DNA of 62,998 bases, counting the filler, from Reclinomonas americana ATCC 50394 (Eukaryota), in assembly GCA_048213135.1 (NCBI GenBank). It is 5 parts of 3 records of this genome, joined end to end, with 100 filler letters (N's around TTAATTAATTAA, not from the genome) between each part and the next. Parts side by side here need not be neighbours in the genome. Positions count along the whole stretch, not along the records: positions 1 to 27,908 come from PS015019.1; 4 more parts are not named here. The stretch is one strand, 5' to 3'. The notes below the pieces were generated by a model. The model was not told where the DNA came from. It saw only the letters and a program-made list of their open reading frames with translations, and ran no database searches. The translations under genes were made by a program, and so were the position numbers. Of this stretch, positions 2,248-49,760 are shown in pieces. Numbering within the stretch: position 1 is the first letter of the stretch; every line of letters starts with the position of its first letter.

Positions 2248-5133
2248 ATGAGGACTTGGAGAAGAGAGGCCTGCACCCTCATCTCTCTCCTTCTTCTCCT
2301 CACCCTGGCCCTCTGCCAAGCCACCGCCTTTTCTCCCATGCCCTCCCTCTCCGACGCACAAGTCACCACATACACAGTCCACGACCTCAGCCACACTGGC
2401 GACTTTGCCGATGTGCTGCTGAAGCCACTGTTCAAGCGCGGCATTGCCGGGTTTCGTGCTGTAGTGGACGACCCGATGATTGCAGACCATCCTGTGGAGG
2501 TGCCAGTCGCATTCCGCTTCTATCACGTGTCGCTGTTGGATGCAGGTGTGGGAATGCACATGCACATTCGTTTTTCCTCTTGTCTCTCTCTCTCACTCAC
2601 TCTCTCTCTCTCTGTGCAGTGGACGAAGCACTTGCCGATTTCTCGCGTCTGCAGGCGGAGCAACTGCGCATGCGTGTGGCTCGCTTTGGTGTGAGTCTCT
2701 TCTCTGATGTGCCACTGATTCCGGTGGCCGATCCAGTGGTGTGGCGATGCTCTCTCTCACGTGTCGTTGCTCTCCTTGTTTGGTGGGTTTACTCACTCGG
2801 TCTCTCGTGCTGCGGGCAGCATGCTGCCGAGTATCCGCGGGCGTTGCCGCACAGACATCCGCGCATTGCTGAGGCAACGTTTTTTCTCAGTGACCTCACT
2901 CCGCTGCGCTTGGCGTTGGATGCCTCGCGCTCTTGGCGTGAGCAGGGTGCGTGCCGCGCATCCTGTGCATACAGCGGTCACCTGCAGCCCTCACTCTTGC
3001 GTGCAGTGCACGAGTGGCTGCCTGGTGAGCAAGATCCGCGGCATTTGTTGGAACGTGCTCTGGAGATTGACACGCAGGTACGCTGTTCTACGTGGCAGTT
3101 CCATTTGTGAAGCCTGTTGTCTTGACGCCACGCGATCAGGACACTGAAGAGATTGTAGCCTCGCGCAACTACTTTACCGCATACATGCAGGTCTGCTGCG
3201 TGCACTGCGCTGTTCGCTCTGCTTCACCTGACTCCTCTCTCCTTGCTCTCTTCTCGCCCAGCACCTGAAGAGGCACCCGGAAGACACGCGCACACCAGCA
3301 CCACGACTGTCGTCGTACGACCTGCGGGGCGAAGAAAAGTCGCCTCCAATGCCGCAACAACAACAGCGTCAGCTGCTGGCCGAGTGGGCGCATGGCTCGC
3401 TGCTCGCAAGCTCACGCGGCGATGCCGATCTGTGCACCATGTTGTGCGTAGACTACGGCTACATTACAGACTGTGCGTGAGCAACACGTGCGATCCACCC
3501 TGCACATGCAACTGATCGCGCTCTGTGTGTTTGTGTGTGACGCAGACTCCGAGACTGCGGCGCATTCTTGCGACTGTACGCACATTGGCGACGACTTTGC
3601 ACAGCGCGGCCGTATCATGGCTGCACCTGCGCCTCCGGCGCCCGGCGTGGCCGTGGACGCGAATTACTTTAGCCCAACGCCGATCGCCGACACGGTGTGC
3701 GAGGGAGTGGAACGCTTACTGTGGGCCTCGCTCACCGACGACACCATGTTGCAAGAGGCCGCGGCCGCCGTGGCCAATCCACGTGCGCCAGCGCCACAGT
3801 CGCTGTTCAAGTCGAGTGCATTTAGAGAGGATTCTATCGCTCTGGCCGATTTCGCGGCGCACCTTGCACAGGCATCGTTTGGCCTGCAGACCGCTGATCA
3901 GGGCAAGCTGGTGGTGTTCACGGTGATGCGCTTGACTCGTGAGAATTCGTCGGTGAACAAGTGGCGTGCGCTGCTGGCCAACTGGTTGACACTCTTCTGG
4001 CACGCTCACGGCGACCAGGCGATGCCGTTGGTGGTGTGCCTGGACGAGGAGACCCTGTCACTGGTGCGCTCGGTGGTGATCAAGGAGCGGCAAGTGCTCG
4101 CGTATCTCGATCGAACTGGCTGGTGAGTGGGTGGCGGGGATAGATAGAAGGGGAAGGGGGGAGGGAGGAGGGAGAAGCGATAGAGATAGCAACTGACTGA
4201 GAGGGAGTGAGAGAGAGAGAGCAAGGATGAATCTCACTATCTATATCTTAATTGCACATCACGCAGGGGTCGTGACAAGGCCGCAACACCGTATGGCTTT
4301 GGACCGACGGTGAATGTGCGCTACCTCTACTCGTACATGTTTGTACGCCTCGGCTACCAGTCGCTGTATCTGGACGTGGATGCGCCAGTGATGCGAGACG
4401 TCACCATGTTGCCGCAGCTGCGACCACCGGTGGCTGATGTGTTGGCGCTGTCCGAGTGCAGCAATCCGAACTGCGATCCCTACGAGGTGACGCTGACGAG
4501 CCCAGAGGCGCGCATGCGAGAGCCGTGGAGGGTGGCGCCCGTGGGATGCACATCTGTGTCGGGAGAGTGGGTGCGTGTCTCTGTAGAGATTGGCTGCTGT
4601 GGTCTCGTTCTGTGTGTGACGTCTCCCTTCCTCCTGTGCCTTTCCCCAGCGATACGCGGCATGTCGGGAACACATGCGACACTTTTGCATCAACGGCGGC
4701 GCCTTCTACTTCCGTCCGACGGTGTACTCGCTGCGATTCCTGGCGCACTTGATCAATCTGCTGGAAGTGCACTGGGCGACGTGGCAAGAACAGGACGTGG
4801 TCAACTTCCTCATGGACTACCACACACGTCTCGGGCGACTGCGGTTCGACTGGTTCGATCCGCGTCAAATGTCGACTCTTATGGGATTCGCGCGACTGCG
4901 GGCCGAACGGCTGCTTCCGCCCGCTGTGAAGGCGGGCATCACTGCGGTGTGTAGTGTGGTCGGAAAGAAGAAAAAGAAGAAGAGTGATTGAGTGATGCCA
5001 CTCACCCATCATTGCTGCGCAGGTTCATGTGGTCGGCAACATGAGCATCAAGCTGCAGTCATTACAAGGCGCTGGCCTGTGGTGGACAGCGCCACTGGAT
5101 GCCTTTGAGAGTGATCCCGGTGACGAAACATAG
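2248..5133 (+). CDS. GT77-like glycosyltransferase, copy B (tandem paralog, signal peptide/anchor)
   Basis: N-terminus MRTWRREACTLISLLLLLTLALCQA; C-terminal exons nearly identical to copy A with shared intron positions; ends ...ESDPGDET*. Confidence 0.85.
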
Positions 5134-7995: not shown

Positions 7996-10900
7996 CTACA
8001 TCATCATGGCGTTGGCGGTGGACGCCGCGTGCAACAGTGGGCTGCGTGGCTGGCCGCCATTGGCAGCCGCCATCATTGTTGCTGTGGTTGGCGTCGAGTG
8101 TAGCAGCTGTGCCGTCGAGGGTGCGGAGAAAGTGGAGAAGGGCGAGCCGAAACCGACGCGGGGCGGAGACGGCAGCGGTGGCGGCAGCAGGAGCATTGGG
8201 TCGTAGCCTGCAATGGCGGCGTACCGAGCAGCCGGCGACGACGCGGCATTGGCGGCGGCCACGGCAGCAGCCAGCTGTTGAGAAATGGACGGCAAGAGCG
8301 GAGGCGACGAGGCGGTCTGCGAGTTCAACCCAAACGGCTTGGACAGGTGCGCTGAGGCAAACGAGTCGCCAATGGGTGGCAGCGGCGGCAACAACAACTC
8401 GCGCTCCACCTCCTCCGACTTGGTGGTGACAATGGTCGGCGGTGGCGCCCTCTTCTGTTGTTGTTGTTGTTGTTGTTGCTGCTGCTGCTGCTGAAGAGGC
8501 GTGGCAAAGTCTGGGACCTCGCGAGAACTGGAGAGCGACAGCAACGCCTGCAACGCCGAGTGCAACTCCGAGTCGAGCGGTCGGCGAAGGACCGAGTTGG
8601 GCGTGGCCGGCGAGAGCGCACTCCTGCTGCTGGCCGCATCGCTGTACGAGGCCGACGACGGATCCAAAAAGGGCAACTGACGCAAGTGCGACGGCACCAC
8701 GAATGTGGCCGACGACATGTCGGTATCGCCGCTGACCGAGCGCGGTCCGCGCATTGCGGCCGACCGCTGCTGCATCATCGAGGGCGACACACGACTCGTC
8801 AACGGCTTCTTGGCAGACACGGCGGCGCGACGACGCGACGACGCGACGCCACCGCTTCGGCCGCGCGCACCCGTGCCGTGTTGCACATACTCGCCGTCGC
8901 TGTCATGCTGCATGCCGGTAAAGTCCGTTGGATCGTCGTACTCGCCGGCGTCGGCAATCTCCTGCTCGTCCGTCACCATCATTGTGGGGCGGGAGCGCTG
9001 TCGCGCCGACTGCCGCAGGCTCGCCTGCGAGGCCGCCGGCACACCGTCCACGTACATGGAACCGTCGTCGTCGGGGAACGCATCGTCTTCGTCCTCCTCG
9101 TCTACCACACCCACATGGTCCAACAGATCAAGGCGCGAGACGTAGCGTCGCCGGCGACCACCGCCATTCGTCATGTTGTCGTCGTCGTCGTCACCGTCGC
9201 CGGGCACAGGAGACGATGCTGCGGTTCGTGATAGCCGCCGGCGGTGACGCGACGGTCGACTCACGTGTTGTGTCGGTGCATCGCCAAATGCCGCATGCGG
9301 AATGGGTGATGTGGCACCGGAAGCGGGAACCGACAGGGAGCCGGCGCGCTGGCAGGGGAAGTCAGCAACAAAACAGCAGAGTTTTAACGACGACAATGAC
9401 CCCACGAAAAGTGCGAGGTTCGATGAATATTGCAGGAAGGGGAAAGGAGATGGGGGAGAGGCATGACGATGATGTGCGACGGCATGCGAGCGCATGAAAG
9501 TGGAAAGCAAAAATCCGGCACGAGACCGATATGCAGGAGTGAAAAACGGCGAAGCAATAGAGAGACGCGGACATCGAGAGCCGATAACGTGGCACCAGCA
9601 AAGAATAAATAAAAAGACAGACAGACGCCGACGACGAAGAATAAAAAGACACAGCTCCGCGGAGAGGAGGCCGGCCATACGGTAGTGCGAGCCGATGACA
9701 AAACAAATACCGACACGTGGAAAAAAAAAGGGGAAAAGAAGAAGAACAAGGACCCCCACAGAAATATCCCGCGCGCCCACACACATATGCACGGCGAACG
9801 ACGCAACTGAGCGCTGCAGCGAAAGCATGTGCGGTGAGTGGGGAGGCGCGCCTCCCGCCACCGGCACTCCTTGCTCGTCATCATCATCGTCCTCGAAACG
9901 CGAGCTCCGGCCGCTTCCGCCGCTGCGATCGCGCTTCTCCTTGCGTCTCCGATTCTCAAACCACACTGCGTGTGCGTGGGGAGAGAGAGAATGGGCGTGC
10001 GTGTCCGATCAATATGCGAGAGACGATGACCAAATTAGGAAATGCTGAACGACGACGTACCACTGACAGAGCTGAAGGAGCGGGCAAACTCGTCGGCAAG
10101 CGCCTGCTTGCGCTTGCGATCCGGGTACGGGTTTGTGAGAAACTCCGCCTCCAGCGCGTGCAACTGCGCGACCGACAAAAACAGACAAAAAACAAGACGA
10201 ATCAGACAAAAAGGCGCACAAGCCGTGTGCTGCGTAGAGGAGAGAGTGTGGAGGGAGAAAGAGAGAGAGAGAGAGAGAGAGGAGAACGAATGTGGCCGCA
10301 TGCTCATGTGTGCGTGTGTGCGTGAACGGACACTCAAGATTCTTGCCGTCGGCGGGCATATCGATATGAACCCGAAAAACCAGCGTGCAGAAGACGCACA
10401 AGAAAGCAGACAGACAGACACAAAGATTAAGAGAGCGTGCGTGCAAAAGAATGAGGGAGGAGGGAGGCATGCAACCAGTGTGCCGCACATCTGTGTTTTT
10501 TGATATCTTTCAAGGGCACACGCTGAAAAAACAAACAGGAGTCATCAAAAACAAACAACATACAAACCCCACTCTCACCATAAAAGCAGCGGGGAGAGTG
10601 AGGCGCGCAGAGAGGAGAGAGTGAGAGCAAAATGCGAGGAAAAACAACTGATGCAGTCAAAAAAGAAAAAGACAGACATCGATATGAAGAAACGGACACA
10701 CAGTGCACACACACGCTCTCACACACACGCTCTCACACACAATCAGAGGAGGTGCAGGAGAGGAGCACAAGGAGAAGCAGCAGCAACAGGCAGAGACACA
10801 CACAAGAGAGAGAGAGTGAGTTTTGTGGGAGGTGCGAAAATGTCAGACCAAAAAAGCACACACGCGCTCACACACACACACCGACTCTCTCTCTCTCTGT

Positions 10901-11030: not shown

Positions 11031-11939
11031 CTCGCACACACACACAGAGAGAGAAGACGAAGAAGAAGAACAGACAGGTAAAGCACGGAGAGAAAAGAGA
11101 GAGAGGGAGTGATTGAAATCGACCACACTTCCACTGCTCGACGAGAAAGGGAAAAAGCTACGAAGAAATCGGGGTGCTCGCGCGCCGAGGATGTATTGGT
11201 GAGGAGGACGGGGTGTGTGTGCGCGCAGAAGTGCTCGTGGAACGGGGTGTGTGGCGTGGTGGCGCGGATCTGCGACGATCAAGCGCAGTGCATTATTCCT
11301 GATGACGACGAATGCGTGCGTGTGTCTCGCGCGCCTGCTGGCGCGCGCGGTGGGCAATGTTGAAGTGTTGTGCTTGCTGTGTGCGTCGGTGCGCTGGAGA
11401 GAGCGGGAGAGGGGGAGAAAATCATTGTGCAGGCGTGCACCGGATTTGGCGAACAGCGTTTTTTCGGACGTGGGCGTGGTTTGGAGCCGGCAAGCGCGTT
11501 GTGCGGATGGTGTTGAGGTGCATGGGGGGCGGTCGTGTTGTTGCGCTGGTGTTGTGGCTGTGTGACTCCGGATTCGAATCATGCAATGCGCGTGAATACA
11601 GATTTGCGATATCGAAAGCAAATTCGAGGGCGTGTGCCTCGAACCTGCCTGCGGTTGGTGCGCGTGTAGAGGCGGATAGATGTTCAGAGAAGGGGAGAGG
11701 GTGCAAGCACCAGAAAAGAGAGAGAGAGAGAGTTGTCTGGCGTGGTTCGGATTCGGAAATTGATGTGTTGTCTCACACGCGCGACAATGCGTCTGCGATG
11801 ACAAAAGTAGGCGATCCTCGCACACGTGCCGCGGGCACTGTTGCCAGCCCTCTTGACAACCAGGCAGTTCACGTTTGCCTGCTTTTTACAAGCAAGCGGT
11901 AGTAAATTTCATATTCGAACATACAGTCGCTCCTTTGCC

Positions 11940-12525
11940 ATGCGAGCGAGATCAACCCCGCCCCTTCTCCTCCTCCGTTCCTCCCTCCTCTCCTCCGTCA
12001 GCGCCACGGCGATCGACTGGGAGCAATGCGCAACTGACGAACCAGCCGAAACAACGGTGATGGACTGCAGTGGACCTGGCCTCGGACGGCGACGGTGGTT
12101 TTGACACGCTGTACCGGGAGGCCCCGCAGCGTTTCCGGCGTGCCCTGGCGCCGTACATGGAGCAGGGCCGCGTGCGATACCACGTGATGCCAAGCTTTGA
12201 TTTCCTCGTACGCGTGCAACTGCTCATCGCTTCGAATTCGCCACCCACCGAGCCGTACGACTTTATCTACGTGCACGTGGATGGCAGCCACCTCGCGCAG
12301 CATGTGTTGGAGGATGTCGTGCTGGCGTTCCGCCTGCTGCGTCCCGGCGGCGTCATGGCATTCGACGATTACGAGTGGACAGCCGAGACGGAGCTCACCA
12401 ATTGCAAGACGCCACGACCGGCAATCGACGGCTTCCTGGCAGTGTATGCCGATATCGATCAGGTGGAGCTGCTGGACATGGGAGGGCAGGTGTGGGTGCG
12501 ACGGAGGTTGCAGAAGGAGGGATGA
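11940..12525 (+). pseudogene. Decayed duplicate of the adjacent secreted methyltransferase
   Basis: Relative to 12609-13666 it has a ~500-bp deletion removing SAM motif I, a +1 frameshift near 12068, and five 6-bp insertions, one breaking YVDGSH into YVHVDGSH. Confidence 0.85.
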
Positions 12526-12608
12526 GCGGTGAGTGTACCGTGCTCCTTGCTCGTATCGTGTGACCCGAGAATCCTCCTGTCCCGCGATCGCAATCAATCC
12601 ATTGCCAG

Positions 12609-13666
12609 ATGCGTGCGAGATCACGGTGCAGTCTCCTTCTCCCTCTTCTTCCCCTCCTCCTCTTGCTCGTCGTCTCTGTATCTGCCAAGGCGATCGACTT
12701 GGAGCAATGCGCAACTGACACGCCAGCCGACTTGCAACGTGCCATCCTGCGGGGCAGAGCACTCGAGGTGTTTGTGGACGGTGGCGCACGTCGCATCGAC
12801 TTGGAGGGTGCCGCAGACAGTCGACACGCAGGTGTGCCTGCGTGTGTGTCAATGCGCCAAGTGCATTGCATCATTCCTCACTCTCTCTGCCACCAGCGAT
12901 TCGTTTTGTCAGCTCTCTCGACGCCCACTCGCAGGCCGTCGGCGGTTGTGCGCTCCTCCAGCAGGTGCATCGCGTCATTCTGAGCACACTTCCGCCAGCG
13001 CCCACACCACTGGCCGTGCAGCGTGAGCAACACATGCGCGAGGTGCCGGCCAATGCTTATCCTTTCAGTCCGCCCGCCGACGAGCTGTTCGAGCACCCAT
13101 GGTTCCTGTGGTCGGGATTCCGCCTGCGCTTTGTCGATCATGTGCCGTTCAATAGCACGCACCGCATTCTGGAGATTGGCAGCTTCGAGGGCCGCTCGGC
13201 GTTGTGGATGATGCAGAACTCGCTGCCGACAACGGTGATGGACTGTGTGGATCTCGCGTCGGATGGCGCCGGCGAGATGGAAACGTTGTATAGTGAGGCC
13301 CCGCAGCGTTTCCGTCGTGCCCTGGCGCCGTACATGGAGCAAGGCCGCGTGCGGTACCACGTGATGCCGAGCTTCGATTTTCTGTTGCAGCTGCTGACCG
13401 CTTCGCCACCCACCGAGCCGTACGACTTTATCTACGTGGATGGCAGTCACCTCGCGCAGCACGTGTTGGAGGACGCCGTGCTGGCCTTCCGCCTACTGCG
13501 TCCCGGTGGCGTCATGGCATTCGACGATTACGAGTGGACAGCCGAGACGGAGCTGACCAAGACGCCACGACCGGCAATCGACGGCTTCCTGGCAGTGTAC
13601 GCCGATCAGGTGGAGCTGTTGGATATGGCCGGGCAGGTGTGGGTGCGACGGAAGCTGCAAGCGTAG
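12609..13666 (+). CDS. Secretory-pathway class I SAM methyltransferase (Methyltransf_24-like)
   Basis: Signal peptide; intron 12832-12896; LEIGSFEGRS, DFIYVDGSH and LRPGGVMAFDDY motifs. Confidence 0.88.
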
Positions 13667-13843
13667 ACAGGAAGAGGTGAAGATTTTGTATAATAGTCGC
13701 TGCTCGTGAGCAATGTCTGCGATCGCACTGGGTGTAATCAGTGAAGGGGTGTGTTGTTAATCGTGGCCCGAAGCTGCTCAGCGAGCGAGCTCGACGTCTA
13801 TCGCCAGGGGGACGATTGTGTCCGCATCGAGTCAATCGCAAGC

Positions 13844-14537
13844 ATGAGTGGAGCAGAGGAGGAAGGAGCATCGTCGTCGGGATCGGCGTCTTCTGCAGTG
13901 CCGCAGTCTCGCGATGAGGCCATCGAACTGCGTGCAGCAGCAGTGCGAGACACGCACGGTGCATCGGCTGCCGAGCTCGAGGCCATTGTCGTATCGTTCA
14001 CGAGTTATGTCAGTGCATCGCTTCTGCACACACACACACACATGCGTGCTCGCACCCGTGACACTCATGATTGTACTCCCTGCACGAACAGAGATGCTGG
14101 AGAAACACGGAGCCACGCAGGCACCGATTGACCAAATCGTCGATCATGCACACAGTATGCTCCTCCAGCTCTCGGTGGCCAAGCAGCGCATGCAGGTGTA
14201 ATCTCCCTTCCCTTTCTCTCTCTCTCTCTCTCTCACTCCGTGTCCCATCACCCCACCGTCACTCACTCTTCTGCCTCTTCTGCCACCAACTCAGTGCACA
14301 CTGGACGAGTGGCGAGACATCTTTACGCGACACGCCTTTGAGGCCTTGGACGAGGAGATGAGCGTGTGCGATCTCTGTTCAGTGCCGACGTCGACGACGG
14401 AAGAACGAAGTTGTGCCGCTTGTCAGCATCTGGTGGTGGAGACATTTTTGCGTGCACTACGAGAGGTGCCCGCGGAGAATGCACGTATGGCCGTGGGCAT
14501 GCTGGAGAGGGCCGGCATATCACCGTCAATGGAATGA
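13844..14537 (+). CDS. Hypothetical protein, 3 exons, with two CxxC pairs
   Basis: Splice-consistent frame MSGAEEEG..|EMLEKHG..MQ|CTLDEW..CDLC..CAAC..SME*. Confidence 0.55.
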
Positions 14538-14999: not shown

Positions 15000-16770
15000 A
15001 TGTTGAAGCTCCTGATCGTTGTCGTATGTACCCTGGCGGTGTGTACGAGCATGGCCTACGCCCAAGGTCAGTAACGGTCCACTGATACAAGCGATCTTCT
15101 TGTGATCTTTTGCCACTCACCTGTTGCGTGTTCAGGCGGAGACTGCTCCACCAACCCGGGCGCATGTAACCCCAATGTTGCACTGCGAACAAACGTGGCT
15201 TTCAATCATCTTGCTGTTCGGATAACTCACGTTTCGCTTCAACGTTGCAGGGTTCGTGCCAGAGTGGCAAGTGCAAGTGCGCGAACAACTGCTTCAATGT
15301 CGGCGGAGACAACTTTTGCGCCAAGTTGAGTGCAGCTGCCTGCATCGCTGCGTGTATTTCTTCTTGCTGCTCATTTTTCTGTGGTACGCAGCTGGACGGG
15401 CCCCTTCTGCACCTGCCACCCCGTCCGCACCTGCTCGAACCAAGGCGCCTGCAACGCCGCCGGTGCCTGCGAGTGCATCAGTGGCTTCTACGGCCCCAAC
15501 TGTGACAAGACTTGCGATCCGGCCGTCACCTGCAGCGGCCAAGGCTCATGCGCCGCCGCTGGTGGTTGCACGTGCAACTCCGACTACTATGGTGCCTCGT
15601 GCAACCAGTACTGCTCGGTGCGTGTGCACTCTGGTATATTCCGTCCGCTCTTTTCATAATCTCAACTCGTACTCTCCACCCCAGGCCTCGATCACGTGCA
15701 ACAGCCACGGCACGTGCGACTCGACTGGCTCGTGCGTGTGCTCCGGCAACTGGACCGGCGCCAACTGCGATCAGTGCAAGCCGAACTACTACGGCTCGTC
15801 GTGCGCGACCTACTGCCTGGCGTCGAGCACCTGCAGCGGCCACGGCTCCTGCAATGCTGTCACCGGCGCTTGCGTGTGCGACGGCACCTTCACTGGCGCC
15901 AGCTGCAACCAGTGCATCGCCGACTACTATGGAGCATCGTGTGACACGTACTGCGAGGCTTCCACCACGTGCAACGGGCATGGCTCGTGCAACGCCACCT
16001 CTGGCGCTTGCGTCTGCAGTGGCAACTTCACCGGAGCTGCTTGCGATCAGTGCATCGCGAACTACTTCGGCGCCAACTGCGACGTGTTTTGTGAGGCCTC
16101 CAGCACCTGCAATGGCCACGGCTCTTGCAACAGCAGTGGGCAGTGCGAGTGTTCGGGCAACTGGACTGGCTCCTCCTGCAACCAGTGCAAGAGCTACTAC
16201 TACGGCGCCAACTGCGACACGTACTGCAAGGCCTCCACCACCTGCAACGGAAACGGCACGTGCAACAGCAGCGACGGTAGCTGCGACTGCACCGGCAATT
16301 TCACCGGCAACAGCTGCAATGAGTGCATTGCCAACTACTACGGCTCCTCGTGCAGCACCTACTGCCTTGCCTCCTCCACCTGCAGCGGACGTGGCTCGTG
16401 CAATAGCAGCGATGGCAGCTGCGACTGCTTCTCCAACTGGTACGGTGCCTCATGCAACGTGTCGTGCGTTCCGCAGACCACGTGCTCGGGTCGCGGTCAG
16501 TGCGGCAGCAGCGGTGCCTGCGAGTGCAACGCAAACTTCTACGGCCCCTCATGCAACGTCAAGTGCACGACGTCGATTTGCTCCAACCACGGCACGTGCA
16601 CCACTAGCGGCACCTGCGATTGCACTGGTGGCTACACCGGCACGCTCTGCAACAACAACTGCCTGCGCGAGCTCACCTGCTCGAACCGCGGCAACTGCGA
16701 CGCCATGGGCAGCTGCGTGTGCGATTCCGGATTCACCGGCTCGAACTGCAGCCAAATTGATGTCTGCTAA
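15000..16770 (+). CDS. Secreted EGF/laminin-EGF (tenascin-like) repeat protein
   Basis: Signal peptide MLKLLIVVVCTLAVCTSMAYA; many C[NS]GHG[ST]C..G.C.C..[WF]TG..C repeats; no transmembrane segment seen. Confidence 0.9.
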
Positions 16771-22897: not shown

Positions 22898-23367
22898 ATG
22901 AGCGATTGTCCGAAACGCAACACGGGGCAGCTGTGTGCTGCGGCCAACAGGCTTGGCGGCACGATTAAGTCAATGCAAGCTGCAGTGAATGACGAGGGTC
23001 GAAGGGAATCGCTGGCCGACGCCGACGATCTCATGCGATATCGATATTGGCCACGAATTCGAACCGCTTGGCCGTGTGGTCGCAGACCATCAATACCGGT
23101 GCCCCGGGTGACGCGTCGGTGCAAGTGACGGCCAGCCTGTTGATCCTGGAGCCGACGTTTGCCGGTCTCACTGCGAACCTGCTGATGCCGGCGGACGCAG
23201 CCAGCGGCGAATTCCTCTTCATCTTCAATGCCTCGTTCGCGCAGCAAGAAACCATGACACTGAACCCCGACCCGTCTACGCTCCCGTACGGACTGGAGGG
23301 CGTGCAGGTGAAGCCGGGTGAGCTCGCCAAGTGGATTTTTATCGGCACGGTCTGGTTCCCTCTGTGA
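22898..23367 (+). pseudogene. Intronless orphan ORF, probably frameshifted, weakly resembling viral fibre beta-modules
   Basis: The 23047-23367 frame has no upstream in-frame ATG after the preceding stop; the ATG ORF from 22898 is in another frame and the two meet at palindromic scars (23037-23063). Confidence 0.4.
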
Positions 23368-27908: not shown

Positions 27909-28008
27909 NNNNNNNNNNNNNNNNNNNNNNNNNNNNNNNNNNNNNNNNNNNNTTAATTAATTAANNNNNNNNNNNNNNNNNNNNNNNNNNNNNNNNNNNN
28001 NNNNNNNN
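27909..28008. other. Artificial scaffold linker N-TTAATTAATTAA-N (also at 49705, 55655 and 61308)
   Basis: Identical 12-mer with stops in all six frames embedded in equal N runs, four times. Confidence 0.95.
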
Positions 28009-49646: not shown

Positions 49647-49760
49647 TACGTGTGTGTGTGNNNNNNNNNNNNNNNNNNNNNNNNNNNNNNNNNNNNNNNN
49701 NNNNTTAATTAATTAANNNNNNNNNNNNNNNNNNNNNNNNNNNNNNNNNNNNNNNNNNNN

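Follow-up and report, generated by a model that had tools for sequence, protein, structure and literature searches.

Five X-rc(X)-X insertions in a recently inactivated methyltransferase gene copy of Reclinomonas americana: possible excision scars of a cut-and-paste element

Introduction

What process turns a triplet X into X-rc(X)-X, with its own reverse complement rc(X) in the middle, five times within a few hundred bases of one gene copy? The question is raised by a broken gene copy (copy A) of Reclinomonas americana ATCC 50394 (assembly GCA_048213135.1), which adjoins an intact methyltransferase gene (copy B) on its upstream side. We analysed both copies together with their surroundings in a stretch of 62,998 nucleotides, which we call the window and along which all positions are counted. 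If the insertions are real, the locus records a stereotyped mutation in which each event makes two codons and two overlapping 6-bp palindromes out of any triplet, and five such events fell within 250 bp of a copy whose function had been lost shortly before. If they are an artefact, the record needs correction.

Two copies of a methyltransferase gene

Copy B is an intact gene (Table 1). Its joined exons form a single open frame of 993 bases with a 330-residue product, which matches the whole 105-position profile of the Pfam family Methyltransf_24 (E 2.8e-16, 60.8 bits). The curated cut-off of this family is 26.3 bits and is cleared by both copies. Judged by the profile match, the product is a predicted class I SAM-dependent methyltransferase. 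Its nearest relatives are bacterial-type proteins with 35-49% identity, from which copy B differs by its intron and its signal-peptide-like first exon. The gene looks like an old horizontal acquisition that is fully adapted to its eukaryotic host.

In copy A, the start codon at 11940 is followed by a frameshift and a stop at 12104. The old frame is open again from 12070 to 12525, and this part matches positions 45-105 of the Methyltransf_24 profile (E 2e-9, 38.7 bits). The first 110 bases of copy A match exon 1 of copy B (repeat family D12), and the sequence after the deletion junction matches 13229-13659 of copy B. The deletion of about 498 bp takes out the intron and SAM-binding motif I, and its junction lies at a 5-base microhomology, GCCGA or CAACG. 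We aligned 11930-12560 (copy A) with 12610-13700 (copy B) using MAFFT. Between 12050 and 12512 of copy A, 43 of the 432 aligned columns are mismatched, and the alignment has six indels. One of the six is a single extra A at 12069, which shifts the frame and so leads to the stop at 12104. Together with the adjacent substitution, it makes the palindrome CTGCAG (CTG+CAG).

Table 1. Coordinates of the two gene copies, the lesions in copy A and two further spots in the window
Feature	Position	Strand	Evidence or remark
Copy B, intact two-exon gene	12609-13666	+	Pfam match, exon joining
Copy B, exon 1	12609-12831	+	signal-peptide-like hydrophobic start
Copy B, intron, GT..AG, 65 bp	12832-12896	+	
Copy B, exon 2	12897-13666	+	carries Methyltransf_24 domain
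Copy A, truncated, recently inactivated tandem paralog	11940-12525	+	ORF list, alignments, Pfam, translation
Junction of ~498-bp deletion relative to copy B	12045-12056	+	alignment, repeat family D12
+1 indel, A at 12069, with neighbouring substitution	12065-12070	+	gap list, palindrome check
Insertion 1, CGT-ACG-CGT, +6	12207-12215		copy B reads GTT, two substitutions away from CGT
Insertion 2, TTC-GAA-TTC, +6	12231-12239		alignment with copy B
Insertion 3, GTG-CAC-GTG, +6	12271-12279		inside invariant Y-VDGS motif
Insertion 4, CAA-TTG-CAA, +6	12399-12407		alignment with copy B
Insertion 5, GAT-ATC-GAT, +6	12451-12459		alignment with copy B, family alignment
Pair GAT-ATC-GAT and GAA-TTC-GAA, 18 bp apart	23037-23063		possible further pair, no coding signal
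Palindrome-dense spot between two divergent start codons	56253-56430		word scan, simulations

Five insertions of one form

From 12207 to 12459 the alignment contains exactly five gap blocks. Each is 6 bases long, is extra in copy A and lies in an exact X-rc(X)-X 9-mer. An earlier note on this DNA had described every indel as an insertion of this form, which holds for this interval (five of five) and becomes five of six over 12050-12512, the sixth being the +1 at 12069. All five sites have two copies of the target triplet (X...X) with rc(X) in the middle, and the five triplets are all different. Copy B has a single X at four of the sites and, at the first, the diverged triplet GTT in place of the CGT inferred for the ancestor of copy A, and our alignment agrees with the earlier description on this point. 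Each insertion adds exactly two codons and keeps the frame, also as described before. The five words together comprise 45 bases, every one of which still fits the form.

The pattern is present in the record and far beyond chance. We made 150 order-3 Markov simulations of the window and counted non-overlapping words, dinucleotide runs left aside, per 253 bp. The maximum was one word in 54 simulations, two in 92 and three in 4, against five words in the 253 bp of copy A. By arithmetic, a random 6-base insertion beside X takes the X-rc(X)-X form once in 4096.

The direction of change was read from an alignment with 16 homologues. The extra residues inside the Y-VDGS motif are absent from all 16, so insertion 3 is a gain in copy A. 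At the A-DQ site, copy B agrees with most of the 16. The family alignment thus marks both sites as gains in copy A, and a deletion in copy B is ruled out there. For the remaining three, which are in variable loops, parsimony makes a gain in copy A probable. That the insertions were gained in the dead copy, as proposed earlier, is therefore backed by homologues at two sites and by parsimony at three.

Two simple origins were rejected. Tandem duplication or slippage does not account for the events, as none of the five insertions is a direct copy of neighbouring bases and the nearest case, site 3, needs a mismatch. The earlier note had already set aside slippage and a sequence-specific insert because the triplets all differ, and we reach the same view. 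Designed restriction sites in an engineered copy were also considered. Any X-rc(X)-X word makes common enzyme sites, and copy A differs from copy B at 29% of synonymous sites, with 11.5 non-synonymous changes in addition.

A less simple worry is that the insertions arose in cloning, amplification, assembly or record handling and are absent from the DNA of the organism. Five perfect 9-mers in an otherwise constrained-looking gene are what late artificial changes would look like, and the assembly is a draft with gap linkers. The matching reads of one run gave one 179-base contig which covers only 12678-12856, outside all five insertion sites. An exact 29-base stretch common to both copies had no match in the metagenome contigs, and thus no independent copy was found in that collection. 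Even so, the sites lie deep in a gap-free 27.9-kb contig, and copy A also has a deletion and a frameshift like a real pseudogene. The flank bias, and words of like form in the non-coding DNA at 23037 and 56253-56430 (both described below), also speak against an artefact. No sequencing, amplification or assembly error is known to us by which a 3-base word would be followed by its reverse complement and then by itself again. On balance, we regard an artefact as distinctly unlikely.

Age of the lesions

We compared the codons of both copies after removing the insertions. The synonymous difference pS is 0.291 (29.5 changes in 101.3 sites) and the non-synonymous difference pN is 0.037 (11.5 changes in 309.7 sites), which gives a pN/pS of 0.13. 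The ratio in the insertion-bearing part is 0.11. These values indicate that purifying selection acted on both copies during almost the whole of the long time since they separated. Copy A was thus functional until recently, and its lesions (five insertions, a frameshift and a deletion) must all be young. The earlier note had called copy A a decayed paralog; its deletion and frameshift make it dead, yet by this ratio it is not decayed. Palindromes made by substitution are found twice in copy A (AAGCTT, GAGCTC) and twice in copy B (CAGCTG, CACGTG), with no asymmetry.

If the relaxed phase of copy A corresponds to about 1% neutral divergence or less, the local insertion rate per base would, by arithmetic, be about that of point mutation. 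Such a rate in neutral DNA generally would fill the non-coding part of the window with these words and their relics, which is not the case. Young lesions imply a local burst or hotspot rather than a process that runs steadily across the genome, and a recent burst confined to this locus is what the data point to.

A burst of young lesions also fits a single episode without any transposon. Break repair or a replication error in one error-prone tract across copy A could have made the five insertions, with the same tract giving the microhomology deletion and the +1, both of which lie within the same 500 bp of copy A. The possible routes are a short-range template switch to the complementary strand, a miniature "inverted triplication" and other hairpin-capped breaks. 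In the published data on human polymorphism, insertions that create pseudo-palindromes are a known minority class which makes up at least 15% of non-repeat insertions. Short-range template-switch mutations are known in great apes and yeast, and synthesis during double-strand-break repair is described as rich in quasipalindrome and frameshift errors. Like the insertions in copy A, such mutations are small and contain the reverse complement of neighbouring bases. They differ in being of variable length, often replacing sequence and scattered over the genome, with no fixed 3-base unit or target consensus.

This difference was seen in a length test of the template-switch route. All five events have a 3-base unit, are loop-less and show no prior inverted homology in copy B. 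A switch after exactly three bases, five times, without a loop and without priming, would be chemically awkward, and by our reasoning a 3' end in X has no pairing partner on the same-sense strand. Template switches vary in length and usually overwrite bases rather than add exactly 6. In addition, repair errors do not predict a symmetric C/G flank bias, and seven errors in one tract would mean an extraordinarily sloppy polymerase. A forward-inverted-forward order of three segment copies is also found in the duplication-inverted triplication-duplication rearrangements of human genomic disorders. Those rearrangements span kb to Mb and need pre-existing inverted repeats, in contrast to the 3-base units here. 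The finding that no transposon was detected in the window is in favour of transposon-free repair, and we consider this explanation unlikely but by no means negligible.

Distribution in the window

We counted X-rc(X)-X 9-mers in the whole window and found 45, against about 21 (20-28) expected. Control patterns are in excess as well: X-reverse-X occurs 73 times (24.6 expected), X-complement-X 24 times (10.4 expected) and X-X-X 281 times (59 expected). With symmetric triplets removed, the 1531 X..X positions have the reverse complement in the middle in 30 cases, the reverse in 12 and the complement in 17. The surplus of X-rc(X)-X words is carried by three clusters. Because the control patterns are also in excess, we claim no window-wide signal beyond these clusters. 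Palindromes in general are not enriched in the window (1049 6-mers against 990, sd 32). Decayed scars do not form a pool in the window either: relics with one mismatch number 634, compared with 534 for the control. In the only other sizeable paralog pair (578-2036 and 3569-5040), none of the nine gap blocks has the three-part form. The earlier idea of a dedicated mechanism that acts frequently in this genome is thus not borne out within the window.

Besides copy A, two clusters deserve description. The word pair at 23037 and 23055 may record further insertions but is not significant alone. The spot at 56253-56430 contains TCG-CGA-TCG (56253) and the four-base form ATCC-GGAT-ATCC (56383), followed at 56403-56430 by GAC-GTC-GAC, TTG-CAA-TTG and TTC-GAA-TTC, which almost abut. 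Between 56380 and 56439, 53 of 60 bases are in palindromes of at least 6 bases, whereas the maximum in 40 simulations was 36. The heat-shock element has a canonical 2-base spacer. The spacing of the TTC/GAA words at 56413-56450 does not fit it. This spot may be a product of the same insertion process or a regulatory module.

The second possibility raises the question of whether the words in copy A were selected as cis-regulatory palindromes. The start codon of copy B follows the five sites at a distance of 158-402 bp, so that copy A would be in the promoter of copy B and new binding sites there could have been favoured. The highly palindromic 56380-56439 stretch lies between divergent start codons, and the palindrome GCGATCGC stands just upstream of several start codons. 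Selection would, however, leave the mutational origin of the insertions unexplained. The five palindromes are all different, which means that no single factor's site was being built, and five independent gains of the same rare form would still require a mechanism that makes the form common. Regulatory selection is therefore a highly improbable account of the five insertions.

Flank bias and search for a mobile element

The bases next to the insertions are not random. When both sides are symmetrised, C at position -1 (that is, C before and G after the word) is found in 8 of the 10 flanks of the five verified events (P 0.0013, in a post hoc test over several positions). When the 12 events of the three clusters are taken together, under the same post hoc reading, C is at -1 in 14 of 24 symmetrised flanks (P 0.0027) and A is at -2 in 11 of 24. 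A symmetric C-NNN-G bias fits a two-fold symmetric enzyme. Two-fold symmetric targets such as AC-NNN-GT are typical of transposase dimers.

No transposase family was found among the Pfam hits with E 1e-4 or better in 263 of the 274 window ORFs of at least 110 residues; the other 11 ORFs overlap 12001-13997. A search of the 63-kb window for terminal inverted repeats (TIRs) with a 3-bp target duplication returned only three chance-like GC-rich 11-mers, and a self-BLAST of the window showed no interspersed repeats. The transposase and TIR searches, which the earlier note had proposed as checks on the assembly, gave no candidate element in the window.

Origin of the insertions

The reading that we prefer, and hold tentatively, is that a cut-and-paste element, which makes a 3-bp target duplication and whose flanks are opened from hairpins, left the five insertions as recent, local scars of its excision. 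Insertion of such an element would convert W-X-Y to W-X-(element)-X-Y, and excision would leave both flanks as covalently closed hairpins. If each hairpin were nicked at least three bases off its tip, the left end would become X-rc(X) and the right end rc(X)-X. As both ends would share rc(X), they could anneal on it, and fill-in would give W-X-rc(X)-X-Y. This product would have 6 additional bases, would keep the frame and would be set only by the local triplet. In this scheme the element, the hairpins and the annealing on rc(X) are our inference, while the form of the words, their excess over chance, the gain in copy A at two or more sites, the young age and the flank bias are what the analysis shows. 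The other microhomology product would be a precise restoration, which is invisible, so a host that joins ends by microhomology would leave uniform scars. The 498-bp microhomology deletion may share its history with the five scars, and the +1 at 12069 may be an incomplete scar of the same kind.

Excision has some support from the +1 palindrome, the flank symmetry and published partial scars. The unit is fixed at 3 bases in five of five events, which is expected of a stagger set by a transposase and not of template switching. A mobile element at the locus can also yield a young, local burst in a recently functional copy A. The place of the sites near the start of copy B could mean that open promoter DNA is a hotspot for insertion here, or that one active element made several short hops. 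A preference for insertion into open promoter DNA is known for several transposon families. It would explain the clustering, given the position of the five sites upstream of copy B and of the second cluster between start codons.

Against excision, five insertion-excision cycles in 250 bp would need a very strong hotspot or extreme local hopping, an argument that assumes about 1% neutral divergence or less, calculated from the pN/pS data. To our knowledge, flank hairpins have been biochemically shown for no superfamily with a 3-bp duplication. The earlier note had named a CACTA-like excision footprint as a candidate. The derivation above yields the exact X-rc(X)-X form, and the flank bias and the published partial scars are consistent with the candidate; the part that lacks a counterpart in the window is the element itself, with its transposase and TIRs.

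A related explanation, which we think very doubtful, is an episodic activity restricted to the locus. The marks would then not be left by a wandering element; their agent would be a domesticated transposase, or else a nuclease that forms hairpins, with a 3-bp stagger and an AC-NNN-GT-like preference. If true, the activity would within a short time scatter insertions, each a duplication plus an inverted copy, over some tens to hundreds of bases, and newly silenced or duplicated DNA or open promoter DNA would be possible targets. In its effect it would resemble repeat-induced point mutation or kataegis, but by insertion, and it would provide in-frame two-residue insertions.

Comparison with known systems

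CACTA elements (En/Spm, Tam1, Tpn1, dTac1) are similar to the proposed element in making a 3-bp target duplication of any sequence. Their scars are similar as well, in that parts of both duplication copies are kept together with inverted-complement flank bases. For example, excision of dTac1 in carnation from a TGG..TGG duplication left the scars TGCATGG and TGGCCGG, and the morning-glory element Tpn12 left scars of 3 to 5 bp. The difference is in uniformity. CACTA scars in these sources are heterogeneous and usually +3 to +5, whereas all five events in copy A are complete +6 insertions. Moreover, the window contains no CACTA element or transposase, and the host is a protist-like eukaryote to which the protein collection offers no near relative.

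A study on rice lists 8 of 94 transposon excisions as "perfect", and many of the excisions have flank deletions or filler. This spectrum fits the deletion and the +1 in copy A and also marks five identical, complete scars as unusual.

Hairpins at the flanks have been documented for hAT, Transib, RAG1 and the Mutator-like element Muta1. Opening such a hairpin off-centre is the one established chemistry which adds a loop-less reverse complement, and this is what hAT, Transib, Mutator-like and RAG systems have in common with the form in copy A. They differ from it in their 5-, 8- or 9-bp duplications and in P tracts that are short, variable and usually nibbled. In V(D)J joining by RAG, P nucleotides derive from flank hairpins.

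None of the papers that we consulted describes a constant 3-base P tract joined via duplication-derived microhomology. On the excision reading, the five insertions would be P-nucleotide excision scars in a uniform, complete and microhomology-joined form. If excision is true, the locus would be indirect evidence for flank-hairpin excision by an element with a 3-bp target duplication, and microhomology-guided joining would be shown to be able to make transposon scars uniform. The three-part form could then serve as a simple signature for counting past transposon visits where the elements are gone. Proteins could owe short in-frame insertions to it, and promoters new palindromic sites.

Other features of the window

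The Pfam matches in the window include EGF/DSL, SF3A2, CDC5-type Myb, UTP20, PH, ankyrin and Kelch domains. The best identity of the SF3A2 to plant and animal proteins is 68%, and a 610-residue ORF had no relatives in the protein collection. A search of the Atlas returned clusters of bacterial nucleases only. One tRNA gene was found, and an Rfam scan of the window gave no matches.

The eukaryotic character of the window is seen in the GT..AG introns between the tandem copies 578-2036 and 3569-5040, which appear as indel-rich blocks bounded GT to AG. This tandem gene pair is 88% identical and has a weak match to Nucleotid_trans (glycosyltransferase-like). Its exons are almost without indels, and its introns have ordinary indels of 2-15 bp. 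One 8-bp intron indel at about 1256-1263 (697-704 of alignment A3) contains the 8-base palindrome CCACGTGG, in which the three-part form is absent.

A long open frame at 15226-16767 has many EGF-type repeats and a Delta/Serrate (DSL) domain, and it is built of a 138-bp tandem unit (repeat families D3 and D5). The combination of EGF-type repeats and a DSL domain is unusual beyond animals and their relatives.

The contig joints at 27909-28008, 49661-49760, 55611-55710 and 61264-61363 each consist of 44 N, TTAATTAATTAA and 44 N. TTAATTAATTAA is an artificial spacer with stops in all six frames. The second half of the window thus consists of small contigs strung together, possibly in arbitrary order.

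The three-part form also occurs with a four-base unit outside the clusters, as CACT-AGTG-CACT (40416), TGTG-CACA-TGTG (41784) and CTCT-AGAG-CTCT (61549). Together with the word at 56383, there are four such words where 1.6 are expected. A palindrome-rich stretch surrounds the one at 61549, which is 130 bp away from GAG-CTC-GAG.

The 8-base palindrome GCGATCGC is found at 9925, 12584, 13719, 43888, 53423 and 56255. These six copies compare with 2.55 expected, and 5 of 100 shuffles reach six. For at least four of them, a candidate start codon follows within about 130 bp, at 9828 (-), 12609, 13846 and 56240 (-). GCGATCGC may be a core promoter or 5'-UTR motif.
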